From IMG/VR virus record IMGVR_UViG_2778261214_000028, positions 1 to 35,268 of that record: a stretch of 35,268 nt of DNA; one strand, written 5' to 3'. Positions within the stretch are counted from its first letter, which is position 1; each line of letters begins with the position of its first letter. Of this stretch, positions 6,001-12,000 are shown piece by piece. Position numbers: made by a program. This stretch comes from a virus. Its lineage: Duplodnaviria > Heunggongvirae > Uroviricota > Caudoviricetes.

Positions 6001-9000
6001 GTGATAGCAGCCTTTCATTCAAATAATCCCGCATCAGATGAAAAACTCATTCATAAAGCCTTTGCAAAAGAGAGGCTTAGTGATAATCGAGAGTTTTTCA
6101 AGCTTGAAGATAATGAGCTTTCTGAATCTCTAAATGAAATAAGGGCGCTGGTTGGCCCTGAAAGAAATGGCGAGACGGCAGAATACGCAATTTACGACTC
6201 ATTCATTTCTTTTCGCCATGAAAATGAGCTTGATCTTAATGATGAGCTTATAGAGCAAGGTATGGGTAGTGTAGTTGGTCATCTTCCTGCGGTGAAAAAT
6301 TTCCTTATTCGCGCCGGAATTGATTACGCGAAGCAACTGATAAGCAAATATAACTCATCGATAGTTATTAATACAGATGGCAGTGTGGCGATGGTTAAGT
6401 CTCTTGAAGCCCAATGCTTTGATGCGGAGGTTGGAAATGAGCCTGGCTGAAGTATTTTACCTGCCGAAGAGTGAACCTGTTGAACAGGAGCGAAGAGTGG
6501 CTGATATCGATGATGGTTACACCAGATTCGCTAACGAGCTGCTGGAAGCTATCGCAAGTGCCGATTTAACCGCTCGCCAGTTGAAAGTTATGCTGGCCTA
6601 CGTCCGGAAAACATATGGCTTCAATAAGAAAACAGATCGAATAGCCGATGAGCAAATTGCTCAGTTAACAGGACTGTCAAGGCAGAATGTTAACAAGGCT
6701 AAAAAAGAACTGATTTCAATGAATTGCCTGTTTATGGATGGAAATCAAATCGGTGTAAACAGGGAGGTATCTGCGTGGCAATTCAGCAAGTGTCTCCAAG
6801 TTAGCAACTTTGTCTCGAAGTTAGAGACAAAAAATGTCTCCAAATTAGAGACACTCAATGTCTCGAAGTTAGAGACACTCAATGTCTCGAAGTTAGAGAC
6901 ACACAAAAGACATTCTTTAAAGACAAAAGAAAATATTAATAAACCCCCTATATCCCCCAAAAAAGTTTCTCAGAAGTTCGACCCGCTAGAAACAGAGTTG
7001 CCTGATTGGTTATCGGCAGAAACATGGTTGTCGTGGGTTACCTATCGCAAGGAGATAGGTAAGTCGATCAAGTCTAAGCAAAGTGTCACTCAGGCTATCA
7101 ACGTTCTAAGCAGAAGTCTGGAGAAGGGATATACACCTGAAGAAATTATAAACCAGAGCATCGCCAGTGGTTGGCAGGGGATTTTTGAGCCCAAGACTCC
7201 AAAGGGGAAATCTCAACCGAGTCCGCAGCATCGAGCTATGCAGGAAAACTTTGCCACCAAAGATTACGGACAAACTGAAATGCCTTCATGGGCGCAGGAG
7301 TGAACATGACGCTGGATGAAAAGATCTCCCAACTGGAGAAAAAACTTGCAGAATTGAGTTCTCCGCCAATTGCTATCGAGCATACAGCTGTAGAAATTGG
7401 CACTGGCATCTGTGAAAAACATGGTGAGTTTGAGCAGCGTAACCGTTACTCGACTGGGCCAATTAAGTTTGCTTCAAGACCTAGCGAATGCCCGGAATGC
7501 ATGAGAGATGATCTTATTCGGCTACAGGCAGAGAAGATTAAAATCGACGAGGAATCACGTAAGCGCAATGTCGAGTTTCTGTTGAATAATCTTGATATTC
7601 CTGAACGATTCAAGGGTTGCACACTACAGAACTACGAGCCAGTCAACGACGATGCAAAGAGAGTGCTCAGGGTGTGTCAGGCATACGCCAGCAAATGGCC
7701 TGAGAGGTTACAGAAAGGCGGTGGGCTGGTTATGTGTGGAAAGCCTGGTACTGGAAAGAATCATCTTGCACTGGCTATCGCCCGGCACGCAATTACGGAA
7801 CATCAAAGCTCAGCTATTTTCACAACGGCGCTGAAAATTGCCAGAGAATATAAATCAACATGGTCGAAAAACTCCACCCGCACTGAGGATGAAGTGATCC
7901 GACAGTTCACTAAACCTGACCTGCTAATTATCGATGAGGTTGGTGTGCAGTTTGGAAGCGAGGCGGAAAAGATGATCATGTTCGAAATCATCAACACCCG
8001 CTACGAGCGTATGAAGCCAACAATCCTGATTAGCAACCAGAGCAAAGATGAACTGTCTGCATTCATTGGTGAGCGTGTTATTGACAGGATGAATGATGGC
8101 GGCGGATGCACCCTTGCGTTTACATGGGATAGTTACAGGAGCAGATTGTGACTGGAAAAGAAATCATCCTGGAATATCTGAAAACTCATGAACAATTCTC
8201 CCCACATGAATTAGCTCTGATCACCGGAATACCAAATAACAGAATCGCTCAAGCAGCAAGGCATATGGTGAAACAAGGGCATTTGAGTGTTGTTGAGCGC
8301 AAGTGGAAGACGGTTATTTATGCAAAACGCAAAGTGAAGAAGGAGCCAATTAAAAGAAATCCAGATGGTACGGGGTGGGGATGTGCAAATCCAATGACGG
8401 CGTTTATTAATAGGGCGCTTATGGAAGTAAGGCAATGACCATCTACATCACTGAGCTAATAACAGGCCTGCTGGTAATCGCAGGCCTTTTTATTTGGGGG
8501 AGAGGGAATTGGAGGCTTTAAGAAATGAGTACGATAGCTGAGCTTGTCAGGGCTAATTTTCGTGAAGAGTTGGTGCGTTGGTATCGGTATCGTTCATCGT
8601 CCAGTTTGCCGATTGATGAGTTGTATGAGCATTCACCTGCTGCACGACGCTATCCGCGTGACCGTGTTCTTCGACGGTTGTTCAAACTCAACAATGAGTT
8701 TCAGCGCAACAGAATAATCCGGAGTCTGGAATCAAAGTGAAGGAGTGAGTATGAGTCGACGAAGTAGCTTTTTGGGGTTTGTAATATTCCTGTCCTGCAC
8801 TGGTTACATCGTAATCTGGTCAATTTCGAACATTGACCGTGGCGGGGAATATCTCATTGTAATGTTCTTTCCTTTGTTTCTTGGGTGGTACGCCGCAAGG
8901 TTGCTGGAAGAATGGGGTTACAGGCATAAAAAATAAAGGAGTGTTCAGTGAAGCAAACCCTTTTTTATTGGATTAAGAGCGAGGGGTAAGTACCGATGGT

Positions 9001-12000
9001 AAATGCATTTATTTGTAGTTTATTTCTTGTCGCGATTTTTCATGGATTCCTTCTGATGATGAGTTTTGTTCTCTGGAATAATGGATATCGCATATTGGGA
9101 GTAGGTTTTGTTTTACGGTTTTCAGTTGTCTGCGCGTTGCTACCGATAATTATGGCGACTATCAAATATTATTGGTAACCAAAAAAAATCATCGATGGAG
9201 AGTGATATGGGCGAATCAAGAAAGCAGTTTGAGGAATACGTTGCCAAAAAATTGAGATTACCATTCGAGATGATAACCGAGGCAAGAAATGGTGATAGGT
9301 ACTTCGCATTTTCAAGCATGGATATTCGTCACTCCTTAAATGAGTGGTGGACTTTATGGCAGGCATCGCGAGCAGCTATTGAACTGGATATCGACTGGCC
9401 AGAATCGAATGACGACTTTTGGAGAGATGGTGAAGAAGGTGCTTATGCGATGGGTTATGAGGATGGGCGTGACAAAACGGTAATTGCAGTAATGAAAGCT
9501 ATCAGAGCCGCTGGAATTAAAGAGAAGAATTTCGATGAAGCAAACAATCTTCCTCCGAACTAAGCAACAACAGCAAGCCGCAATCAACGCCATCCTCGCA
9601 ACACCACTCGATAAAGACAAGCCAGTTACCATCCGCATTACTGACTACAAGCGCAACCTTGACCAGAACGCAAAATTTCACGCGATGTTGGCGGATATCG
9701 CACGTCAGGTTCAATGGTGCGGAAAATGGTTAAAACCGGAACAATGGAAGGTTTTGTTGATCAGCGGTCATGCAGTGGCAACAAAACAGGAAGCTGATGT
9801 TTTGCCCGGGCTTGAAGGCGAATACGTCAACATTCGCGAAAGTAGCGCGCAGATGAGTGTGAAGCGTATGGCAAGTCTGATTGAGTACACGACAGCATGG
9901 GCTATTGGTCAGGGTGTCAGATTTACCGACAGGAGGTACGAATGAGACGACAGCGACGAAGTATCACCGACATCATCTGCGAAAACTGCAAATACCTTCC
10001 AACGAAACGCTCCAGAAATAAACGCAAGCCAATCCCAAAAGAATCTGACGTAAAAACCTTCAACTACACGGCTCACCTGTGGGATATCCGGTGGCTTAGA
10101 GAACGTGCGAGGAAATGACAATGCTTTTAATTCAACCTGGATTTGGACTTAGCATCAAAAAAGGCCACATGTTTGGCGAGAAAGAGTCACAACGAAAAAT
10201 GGTGTCTATCCGGTTGCCATTTATCAGTATTTATTGGCTAAACAGGGAGGCAACAAATTATTGGTATACATGCGCCAGAGCAGCATTTAACGACCCTGAC
10301 TGGTTTGTGAAAAACCACCACGCAGTTCGTCAGGCAAAGAGAAAGGCCAACATGACATACATGAAGGCGTATCAAAAAGCATGGAAAGAACACCGCGATC
10401 GATACCAGCAAGACATGGAAAAGCTTGAATCAGAAAACATGGAATTAAGACGAAAGCTTGGTGAAGCAAAACGAGACATTGATGCTTACAAGCGACTTTT
10501 TAATGGTGAAAGCCATGCTTAGCCCATCCCAATCCCTTCAATACCAGAAAGAAAGCGTCGAGCGGGCTTTAACGTGCGCTAACTGCGGTCAGAAGCTGCA
10601 TGTGCTGGAAGTTCACGTGTGTGAGCACTGCTGCGCAGAACTGATGAGCGATCCGAATAGCTCAATGTACGAGGAAGAAGACGATGAGTGATTTCTCTGA
10701 GCTTATTTCCTTCAAAAAAGACAGAGAAGAAATGCGGACTGAATCTGTCTATTACGTTCAACACCGGAATAAACGCTCGGTGCTTGATCAGGAGCTGGTT
10801 ATTACCGGAGACCTGGCATTCAGAACATATAAGGCCAGCATGGAAATGAAGGATTTCCCTAAATGTGGTTCTGAAAGAGAAGCCGCGTTAAAGCTGGCTG
10901 AGTGGATGCAGAGAATGGCTGCTGCAATTGAGAATTACTGGAGTGAACCATAATGGCTAACCTACGCAAAGAAGCGCGCGGCAGAGAATGCCAGGTACGT
11001 ATTTACGGCATATGCAATGGCAATCCTGAAACTACAGTTCTGGCACATTACCGGATGGCTGGAATTTGCGGAACGGGAATGAAGCCTGACGACCTGATCG
11101 GCGCATGGGCTTGTAGCGCGTGTCACGATGAAATCGACCGACGCACCCATAACCTCGACAACAAAGACGCCAGACTTTACCACCTCGAAGGCGTGATCAG
11201 GACGCAGGCGATACTGCTGAAGGAGGGGAAGATTAAGCCATGAACGAATATCAGTTTGTGCTTCCATACCCGCCGTCGGTGAATACCTACTGGCGAAGAC
11301 GGGGAAGCCAATACTACATCAGCGATAAAGGCCAGAAATACCGAAAAGACGTTCAGAAAATCATCCGCCAACTCAAGTTAGACATTTTCACCAAATCACG
11401 ACTCCGCATCAAAGTAATCGCAGACGTTCCAGACTCCCGCCGCCGCGACCTCGATAACATCCTGAAAGGTTTACTCGACTCACTTATCCACGCCGGATTT
11501 GCGGAAGACGACGAGCAATTCGATGACATTCGCGTAATTCGTGGAGTGAAAGTACCAGGCGGAAGGCTTGGAATAAAAATCACCGAACTGGAGAACGTAT
11601 GAACGCCACAATTCAAACGATACCAGAGCTTCTTATCCAGACACGAGGAAATCAGACCGAAGTGGCAAGGATGCTTTCCTGCGCAAGAGGAACAGTGCTC
11701 AAGTACAACCGAGACAGCAAAGGCGAGCGTCACGTAATAGTTAACGGCGTCCTGATGGTCACGCCAGGCAAAAAGGGAAGACGATGAGACTCGAAAGCGT
11801 AGCTAAATTTCATTCGCCAAAAAGCCCGATGATGAGTGACTCACCACGGGCTACGGCTTCTGACTCTCTTTCCGGTACTGATGTGATGGCTGCTATGGGG
11901 ATGGCGCAATCACAAGCCGGATTCGGAATGGCTGCATTCTGCGGTAAGCATGAACTCAGCCAGAACGACAAACAAAAGGCTATCAACTATCTGATGCAAT

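Follow-up and report, generated by a model that had tools for sequence, protein, structure and literature searches.

In phage lambda, ninB follows ren after a gap of only 73 nt. In the stretch of 35,268 nucleotides analysed here (the window; IMG/VR virus record IMGVR_UViG_2778261214_000028), four plus-strand ORFs of 71, 63, 60 and 122 aa (8525-8740, 8745-8936, 8996-9178 and 9195-9563) separate the corresponding genes. An earlier note had described all four, together with the short ren-ninB distance in lambda, and we find both as described. This raises the question of whether the ORFs are genes, how they came to occupy this position and what their products might do for the phage.

The phage is a P22-like/lambdoid temperate E. 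coli phage; according to profile searches, its early gene order is cI, cII, O, DnaC-like, Ren, the cluster, NinB, NinE ... Q. The Q antiterminator gene is found at 11784-12407, and the four-ORF cluster lies 5' of it, behind the replication genes. The elements of the locus are as follows.

8148-8438, plus strand: Ren-like gene, 96 aa, final gene of the replication module (phrog_1687, E=6e-40; phrog_142 'Ren-like exclusion protein', E=3.5e-13)
8435-8507, plus strand: linker with a tR2-type intrinsic terminator (stem-loop 8464-8487, then a T run; terminator scan), left edge of the variable cassette region
8525-8740, plus strand: ORF1, 71 aa, basic, pI 10.8, DUF7301 family (PF23975; phrog_1785, E=3e-33)
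8734-8747 (left) and 8930-8943 (right), plus strand: direct repeat D3, stop plus Shine-Dalgarno motif, AAAGTGAAGGAGTG, bracketing the ORF2 cassette (repeat search)
8751-8936, plus strand: ORF2, 61 aa, predicted two-helix hairpin inner-membrane protein
8944-8958 (left) and 9531-9545 (right), plus strand: direct repeat D2, ninB start region, TTCAGTGAAGCAAAC, bracketing the ORF3-ORF4 segment (repeat search)
8948-8989, plus strand: 13-codon relic ORF ending 6 nt 5' of the ORF3 ATG (read from the sequence and the homology map)
8996-9178, plus strand: ORF3, 60 aa, very hydrophobic predicted two-TM protein of an unclassified family
9207-9563, plus strand: ORF4, 118 aa, acidic (pI 4.75), soluble, PF26207 (Phage_phiTE_015)/phrog_343, overlapping the ninB start by 29 nt
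9535-9945, plus strand: ninB (Orf recombination mediator; PF05772, E=1e-55; phrog_72), right edge of the cassette region

The left edge is a conserved boundary. Positions 8435-8507 are near-identical to the lambda ren-ninB linker in the alignment, and the Ren-like protein shares 43% identity with lambda Ren over residues 1-58 (58 aa). Copies of the tR2 linker that are 96-100% identical occur behind unrelated replication modules in loci L007-L016, namely DnaB, DnaC-like plus Ren, and Toprim primase.

Between this linker and ninB, each of the four ORFs is a separate, independently exchangeable cassette from the gene pool of lambdoid nin regions. In IMG/VR prophage loci the cassettes are arranged in at least nine ways, and their presence or absence varies among close relatives. 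ORF2 can be the only cassette ahead of ninB or be placed differently, phage Gally shows the order ORF3-ORF4N...ORF2-ninB, and in Stx phage 1717 ORF4 is followed by ORF1. The description of the four ORFs as inserted thus holds in so far as they are extra relative to lambda; they did not enter as one insertion, being four independently shuffling cassettes of a known pool. According to a passage in PMC5630979 that cites Juhala 2000, this pool comprises 30-50 genes, with about 10 per phage. The cassettes were joined by recombination at short shared boundaries, i.e. the stop-plus-SD motif and the ninB start, a process that accounts for both the flanking direct repeats and the many gene orders in prophages. 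The junction sequence 8726-8755 recurs ahead of an unrelated 54-aa ORF in L007-L011, and in phage Gally the match to 8726-8958 directly adjoins ninB. The right copy of D2 (9531-9545) is the true ninB start. In the relic ORF, 11 nt from the beginning of ninB, comprising the start codon and the next 8 nt, continue in frame into the 3' end of a 106-aa gene that in other prophages precedes ORF3 (homology map). Translation of this relic, and any coupling of it into ORF3, we only infer. Mosaic assembly of the nin region at stop/SD and gene-start microhomologies is thus visible at this locus.

Within 5.5 kb, 61 ORFs of at least 30 aa can be counted, so that ORF length in itself is not significant. 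Since ORFs of such length are common by chance, the four were judged to be genes by their conservation. Each is preceded by its own Shine-Dalgarno sequence, which for ORF1 is a GGAGG 9 nt upstream of the ATG. The limits given earlier stand for ORF1 and ORF3, whereas ORF2 and ORF4 most likely start a few codons further downstream. ORF2 would begin at ATG 8751 (61 aa), with AAGGAG 5 nt upstream and all homologues beginning with MSRR/MDRR; ORF4 would begin at ATG 9207 (118 aa), with GGAG upstream and homologues beginning with MGESRK/MDESRK. The comparative genomics of the ren-ninB junction, which had been suggested as a check, was carried out and revealed that the ORFs are conserved as ORFs: ORF2 is intact in 80/80 and ORF3 in 56/56 full-length copies, and both are subject to frame-specific purifying selection.

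The two central ORFs had been predicted to encode small membrane proteins, the second within an AT-rich patch. The hydrophobic character and the AT-rich patch are both confirmed. ORF2 (GRAVY 0.40) and ORF3 (GRAVY 1.52) each possess two hydrophobic stretches, and the AlphaFold (AF2) model of ORF2 contains helices at 3-26 and 31-60. The GC content drops to 0.345-0.375 across 8900-9199, compared to about 0.45 around it, with a strong T excess, as is produced by Phe/Leu/Ile/Val-rich coding. ORF2 and ORF3, each about 60 aa long, are both predicted to form a helical hairpin in the inner membrane, and they are unrelated to each other (hhalign).

ORF2 is under purifying selection, with a dN/dS of 0.19 in frame versus 0.86 and 1.36 out of frame when compared with its 72%-identical homologue P0004 in L005. 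Its family is narrow and confined to prophages of Escherichia/Shigella/Salmonella; the exact sequence is present on 997 contigs, always labelled 'hypothetical protein', and metagenomes and IMG/VR contain only near-identical copies plus one at 88% identity. One metagenome copy bears the name 'Renin receptor-like protein', a weak automatic label that we discarded. P0004 is the only usefully divergent homologue.

ORF3, in turn, belongs to a family of 60-65 aa proteins with 25-88% identity, the members near 30% being reached by profile search. Members at 25-40% identity retain length and a Shine-Dalgarno sequence in different phages and in Pantoea. The family shares the loop motif MSFVxWxN[GA][FY][RK]xxG...R with six invariant residues (S23, F24, W27, N29, G35, R41), and by the positive-inside rule this conserved basic loop is predicted to be cytoplasmic. 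The family dN/dS is 0.21-0.27 in frame versus 0.9-1.4 out of frame. Among the closest alleles (80-88% identity) it is 0.64-0.85 with only 10-16 substitutions, so that purifying selection on this particular lineage is evident only through the wider family. No match to ORF3 was obtained in Pfam, PHROGs or NCBIfam, and a motif scan of species-representative genomes returned a single locus, in Pantoea piersonii. More distant members map to the early region on the pL side, beside a TraR/Orf73-type gene in the interval from erf/ssb/dam to int. The nin-type homologues, including those of about 30% identity and one in Pantoea, always have an ORF4-family gene next downstream.

The outer two ORFs belong to known families. 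ORF1 passes the Pfam gathering threshold for PF23975 (E=9e-26; 90.2 bits, the cutoff being 27; positions 1-64 of the 65-position model), and 183 phage records contain it, the majority from Stx phages (933W L0092). ORF4 matches phrog_343 (E=2e-31, profile search) and very likely belongs to PF26207, as judged via its homologues' assignments and not by direct scoring: among the matches listed, 120/120 ORF4 homologues, one of them 97% identical, carry a precomputed PF26207 assignment. The ORF4 family is found in 144 phage records. ORF1 is 94-96% and ORF4 86-97% identical to the DUF7301 and PF26207 proteins of Stx phages (e.g. 933W L0092 and L0091). The 933W-type phages differ in showing the order ORF4(C-terminal part)-ORF1-ninB, and their ORF4 lacks the N-terminal 47 residues present here. 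A 'Lar-like restriction alleviation' annotation was considered for ORF1, as an Stx2-1717 RefSeq CDS overlaps its homologue, but was rejected because that CDS uses another frame and runs into sequence that the window lacks. A PDB sequence search with ORF1 and ORF4 gave no match, the AlphaFold model of ORF4 (pLDDT 73) found no fold match in PDB and BFVD (best E-values 3.2 and 0.54), and literature searches on DUF7301/PF26207 retrieved no papers.

With respect to expression, a consensus-based scan of 8100-10000 detected no plus-strand promoter, and the terminator scan found one intrinsic terminator there, at 8464-8497. The promoter scan gave a single weak candidate site, located at 9178-9149 on the minus strand and directed antisense into ORF3; 3.4 are expected by chance. 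A permissive Rfam search over 8000-10000 yielded chance-level matches only (E>0.4). The absence of an own promoter and the position behind tR2 within the pR operon point to lytic-only expression, and by analogy with lambda the cluster would be transcribed from pR, past tR2, once antitermination acts. The lambda nin genes are dispensable, delayed-early and N-antitermination-dependent (PMC10695390, PMC8022706); given this dispensability (PMC10695390) and their natural presence and absence, the cluster genes are presumably dispensable as well.

In lambda (ren-ninA..ninI) and P22 (ninA, B, D, E, X, F, G, Y, H, Z), the nin genes occupy the same site in the pR operon as the cluster, from the replication genes to Q and past the tR2 linker. 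To our knowledge, none of the nin genes of known function (NinB, NinG, RusA, NinH, NinI) encodes an integral membrane protein, unlike what is predicted for ORF2 and ORF3, and in profile searches no named lambda or P22 nin gene is homologous to any of the four ORFs. Tight packing with overlaps, variable presence and exchange at short boundaries are shared with the lambdoid nin region in general (PMC8022706, PMC5630979). We consider it probable that the four are genuine coding genes serving as exchangeable nin-region accessory cassettes between the tR2 linker and ninB, expressed delayed-early and with a proposed role in host interaction. The cluster most likely comprises dispensable delayed-early (pR, antitermination-dependent) host-interaction genes, whose specific function we infer by analogy with other small membrane proteins.

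T4 Imm is made early in the lytic cycle. Together with P22 SieA and HK97 gp15 it represents small, dispensable phage inner-membrane proteins to which ORF2 and ORF3 can be likened (PMC10883804, PMC11436027 for SieA and SIE). SieA and gp15 are, however, expressed from the prophage, whereas ORF2 and ORF3 lie behind tR2 without a promoter, and neither ORF matches SieA, HK97 gp15 or T4 Imm-type exclusion proteins in PHROG, Pfam, NCBIfam or PADLOC. MgrB, AcrZ, SgrT and MgtS are bacterial small membrane-protein regulators, likewise below about 65 aa; they resemble ORF2 and ORF3 in kind only, without homology. The concentration of ORF3 conservation in a short interface/loop motif is as expected of proteins that bind a larger membrane protein. 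By analogy, ORF2 and ORF3 may, as a tentative proposal, bind and modulate a larger host inner-membrane protein during lytic development. Their most plausible roles would be, with low confidence, the exclusion of competing phage DNA or the blunting of a membrane-based host response; roles in lysis or as toxin-antitoxin components are less likely.

Could ORF2 and/or ORF3 instead be chance ORFs in a recombination scar or spacer, the T-rich patch having another (regulatory or RNA) role? The near-neutral dN/dS of the closest ORF3 alleles (0.64-0.85) and the frequency of ORFs of this size by chance would agree with that, as would RefSeq/PGAP annotating neither ORF in an identical O26:H11 prophage; other annotation pipelines do call them, however. 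The frame-specific selection on both ORFs, the absence of interrupted copies (0/80 and 0/56), the length and Shine-Dalgarno sequence kept at 25-40% identity across phages and Pantoea, and the lack of an Rfam match render this explanation very improbable, and we strongly disfavour it.

If ORF2 and ORF3 are genes, one or both might damage the membrane, either as type I toxins or as holin-/antiholin-like proteins depolarising or permeabilising the inner membrane. Their size and hydrophobicity fit such a role, and ORF2 has two TM segments arranged N-in/C-in and a charged tail at its C-terminus (RLLEEWGYRHKK), as class II holins typically do. The phage, however, carries its own holin (13480-13803, phrog_126), endolysin and Rz cassette (13480-14697), and ORF2 and ORF3 belong to the early operon, some 4.5 kb 5' of this holin gene; early production of a holin would be lethal to the phage. 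No holin, toxin or PADLOC profile (Pfam, PHROG, PADLOC) matches either protein. For a type I toxin-antitoxin system (Hok/TisB-like), the minus-strand site running into ORF3 could be invoked, but neither an antisense RNA nor an independent plus-strand toxin promoter is evident, no Rfam RNA was found and the antisense site count of 1 falls below the chance expectation of 3.4 (consensus-based, a weak negative). Moreover, the short conserved loop motif of ORF3 hints at a specific partner and not at general damage to the membrane. Overall, a membrane-damaging role appears improbable. The same holds for an inhibitor of host division or growth with a function resembling that of lambda Kil, Rac KilR or Qin DicB. 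ORF2 and ORF3, as small lambdoid early genes that are presumably dispensable, would suit this function, and the early region on the pL side, in which the distant ORF3-family members are found between erf/ssb/dam and int, is where lambdoid phages carry their kil-type genes. Yet profile searches revealed no similarity to any annotated family, and we know of no two-TM membrane protein among Kil, KilR and DicB. The toxin, holin-like and division-inhibitor roles proposed in the earlier note thus gained no positive support, given the lack of holin, toxin or defence profile matches and the presence of a dedicated holin.

Returning to a host-interaction role, the basic loop of ORF3 may cooperate with the acidic ORF4-family protein encoded next to nin-type ORF3 genes. 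A specific form of this idea, which we regard as rather unlikely, is a two-gene module in which ORF3, through its invariant loop, recruits its acidic PF26207 neighbour to the inner membrane for an undescribed early-lytic function, e.g. the exclusion of competitors or the countering of a membrane-associated defence. In that case ORF3 would represent a new phage small-membrane-protein family, with members in both early operons, pR (nin) and pL (exo-xis), of enterobacterial prophages. The adjacency could also reflect linkage by descent and not joint function, since ORF4-family genes are far commoner (144 phage records versus 1 for ORF3) and abundant in the region.

Profile, fold and literature searches tied no tested function to ORF1, ORF2, ORF3 or ORF4, and literature searches on small nin-region membrane proteins retrieved nothing specific. 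For ORF2 and ORF3, searches of Pfam, PHROGs, NCBIfam and PADLOC returned nothing beyond noise (Acyl_transf_3, E=0.01; VMA21, E=0.006 for one family member). The locus is an ordinary nin-region mosaic that indicates no new mechanism and answers no open question. Membrane proteins of this size that are made early could plausibly act in anti-defence, exclusion or host takeover, so that ORF2 and ORF3 are reasonable screening candidates. They also represent two conserved small membrane-protein genes that are carried by many prophages of E. coli, Shigella and Salmonella and are usually missed by annotation: in the RefSeq annotation of pathogenic O26:H11 strains, both are skipped and ORF4 is truncated. 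Pfam, PHROGs and NCBIfam contain no entry for the ORF3 family, which could be added to such collections.

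The window comprises almost all of a temperate phage of the P22-like/lambdoid type, in which the genes follow the order cI, cII, O-like initiator, DnaC-like loader, Ren, cluster, NinB, NinE ... Q, holin and virion genes. The four small ORFs which the earlier note had placed between ren and ninB were recovered as claimed, all on the plus strand (ORF1-ORF4 in the following list).

Features of the cluster and its surroundings (window coordinates)
4340-5077, minus strand: cI
8148-8438, upstream of the cluster: Ren-like gene, 96 aa (phrog_142/1687)
8435-8507: linker of 73 bp between ren and ORF1
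8464-8497: intrinsic terminator inside the linker
8525-8740, plus strand: ORF1, 71 aa
8745-8936, plus strand: ORF2 as listed, 63 aa; corrected start ATG 8751, 61 aa
8996-9178, plus strand: ORF3, 60 aa
9195-9563, plus strand: ORF4 as listed, 122 aa; corrected start ATG 9207, 118 aa
9535-9945, downstream of the cluster: ninB (PF05772, E=1e-55)
11784-12407: Q
13480-13803: holin

The Ren-like protein shares 43% identity with lambda Ren over 58 residues. The start of ORF2 should be moved to ATG 8751, given the AAGGAG located 5 nt ahead of it and the homologues, which all have 61 aa and an MSRR/MDRR start, and that of ORF4 to ATG 9207, since its homologues begin with M[GD]ESRK. The NinE ORF as listed (9897-10118) is over-extended: the Pfam NinE match begins at residue 16, corresponding to ATG 9942; this start overlaps the ninB stop in an ATGA, a pattern typical of nin regions. 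Within the O-like gene (6377-7303), the peptide 'NVSKLET' is repeated four to five times in tandem (window ~6830-6930), matching tandem DNA repeats; these are probably the iterons of the origin, which other lambdoid O genes also contain.

With 61 ORFs of at least 30 aa within 5.5 kb, ORFs of the size seen in the cluster are common by chance, and the gene status of ORF1-ORF4 must thus rest on sequence comparison. Hereby, all four are identified as real genes and ordinary members of the hypervariable accessory gene pool of the nin region. ORF1 is a full-length DUF7301 protein (PF23975, 90 bits versus a cutoff of 27; also phrog_1785) found in 183 phage records, mostly of Stx phages, e.g. as 933W L0092. 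ORF4, present in 144 phage records, matches phrog_343 (E=2e-31), and PF26207 is carried by all listed homologues; both the N-terminal motif SR(K/E)QFE.W ... W..WQASR and the acidic C-terminal half of this family are conserved (alignment A5).

Conservation in related phages, which the earlier note had proposed as a check, is likewise evident for the two small membrane proteins, as ORF2 is intact in 80/80 full-length copies collected (loci partly redundant) and both ORF2 and the ORF3 family show low dN/dS specifically in frame. For ORF2, the single usefully divergent homologue (P0004, 72% identity), encoded directly behind a phage DnaB gene, yields a dN/dS of 0.19 in frame (dS about 1.0), while the two remaining frames give 0.86 and 1.36. 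The AlphaFold model of ORF2 consists of two helices, 3-26 and 31-60 (pLDDT 71), and by the positive-inside rule both of its termini would lie inside (N-in/C-in). Comparison of ORF2 with ORF3 showed them to be unrelated.

ORF3 occurs in one phage record only (Gally). Homologues of 60-65 aa, down to 25-40% identity, were recovered from 1.8 billion representatives searched by profile and from IMG/VR; all have two hydrophobic segments and a Shine-Dalgarno (SD) sequence and share the invariant core MSFVxWxN[GA][FY][RK]xxG...R (S23, F24, W27, N29, G35 and R41; alignment A6). The loop of ORF3 is predicted to face the cytoplasm. Family members 67-70% identical show a dN/dS of 0.21-0.27 in frame versus 0.9-1.4 out of frame; for the closest alleles, with 10-16 substitutions, the value is 0.64-0.85. 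None of the family members is matched by Pfam, PHROGs or NCBIfam, and the family that ORF3 defines is uncurated. The AT-rich patch over ORF3 that the earlier note had pointed out is borne out (GC 0.345-0.375 versus ~0.45, T in excess), and it is the plain signature of Phe/Leu/Ile/Val-rich coding.

A total of 45 complete E. coli genomes, most of them O26:H11, contain the whole 1.17-kb cluster at 99.1% identity; in these, it follows a DnaB helicase and not ren. Elsewhere its genes are permuted. Phage Gally has the order ORF3-ORF4 (N-terminal part)...ORF2-ninB and Stx2 phage 1717 has ORF4 followed by ORF1, while IMG/VR prophages show ORF4-ORF2-NinB (30 loci), ORF4-ORF2-ORF3-ORF4-NinB (14 loci, e.g. 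L048, L049, L059 and L060, with ORF2 and ORF3 between two ORF4-family genes), ORF3-ORF4-NinB (11 loci), ORF2-NinB (six loci), ORF1-ORF2-ORF3-ORF4-NinB and further orders. Such permutation is the classic nin-region pattern of lambdoid phages, whose nin gene pool is put at 30-50 genes, with about 10 in each phage, in a passage of PMC5630979 citing Juhala 2000. Short direct repeats lie on both sides of ORF2 (AAAGTGAAGGAGTG / AAAATAAAGGAGTG, stop codon and SD) and on both sides of ORF3-ORF4 (TTCAGTGAAGCAAAC / TTCGATGAAGCAAAC, ninB start). The left-hand ninB-start copy has left a 13-codon relic ORF (8948-8989) with a strong SD, AAGGAG at 8936-8941, in which the first 11 nt of ninB continue, in the same frame, into the 3'-terminal codons of a 106-aa gene located ahead of ORF3 in other prophages. 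The relic ends 6 nt short of the ORF3 ATG, so that translation of ORF3 might be coupled to it.

In sequence, the linker upstream of ORF1 is essentially that between ren and ninB of lambda, in which tR2 lies. In agreement with the earlier note, lambda has ninB close behind ren: past the linker, lambda enters ninB directly (…GGGAAGTCATG), whereas the window enters ORF1. Copies 96-100% identical stand behind a DnaB helicase, DnaC-like plus Ren or a Toprim primase in other prophages; being kept behind such different replication modules, the linker marks a conserved module boundary. No plus-strand promoter-like site was found in 8100-10000, and no Rfam family match in the cluster region. The sole promoter-like site in 8100-10000 (minus strand, 9178-9149, 9/12 consensus matches) points antisense into ORF3 and is probably not meaningful, since the total site count is below chance expectation. 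The lambda nin genes are delayed-early, N antitermination-dependent and dispensable (PMC10695390, PMC8022706); by analogy, the cluster would be made only in lytic growth, via tR2 read-through.

ORF3 genes of the nin type are accompanied by a gene of the ORF4 family. Every nin-type homologue examined is followed by one, directly or past one small ORF (HMM E-values 1e-50 to 5e-4), including homologues at 30-40% identity (loci L018, L121, L127 and L129) and that of Pantoea piersonii (L130). This adjacency is suggestive of a joint function but no proof of it, because the ORF4 family is far more frequent than ORF3 and abundant in the region. A second ORF3 subfamily (L021-L024, L120, L122-L126 and L128) occupies the pL-side early region, where it has erf/ssb/dam on one side and int on the other, with a TraR/Orf73-type gene as its neighbour; none of the loci examined has an ORF4-like neighbour. 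This subfamily is divergent, with the C-terminus ...WVIYFIPGG.., and is translationally coupled to dam; the TraR/lambda Orf73-type zinc-finger gene comes next.

With respect to function, the four ORFs match no PADLOC, holin or toxin profile, the PDB sequence search with ORF1 and ORF4 and the fold search with the ORF4 model gave no match, and a literature search on DUF7301 and PF26207 found no papers. The holin-like role raised in the earlier note is unlikely for early-operon genes of a phage with its own lysis cassette. As to its suggestion of a toxin, the lack of an antisense RNA or promoter, the two TM segments per protein and a conservation centred on the loop argue against a type I toxin, and we consider a membrane toxin in general improbable for ORF2 and ORF3, just as we do a division inhibitor. 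Based on the general mode of action of small membrane proteins, ORF2 and ORF3 could possibly act by binding to a larger inner-membrane protein and modulating it in lytic growth, a tentative reading to which we give greater weight than to either of these. The most plausible outcomes would be that competing phage DNA is kept out or that a membrane-based host response is disturbed.

In E. coli O26:H11 11368 (L003, NC_013361.1), positions 2501-3665 correspond to window 8435-9600 and the cluster is 99.1% identical. Here, the RefSeq/PGAP annotation is limited to ORF1 and a truncated ORF4 of 81 aa, and ORF2 and ORF3 are passed over. Thus, two conserved small membrane-protein genes are missing from RefSeq in identical prophages. 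In Stx2 phage 1717 (L002, NC_011357.1), a RefSeq 'Lar-like restriction alleviation protein' CDS (2471-2896) overlaps the DUF7301 (ORF1) homologue in another reading frame. The 'Lar family' label is also found on some GenBank DUF7301 fragments, and on DUF7301 sequences it looks like annotation carry-over.
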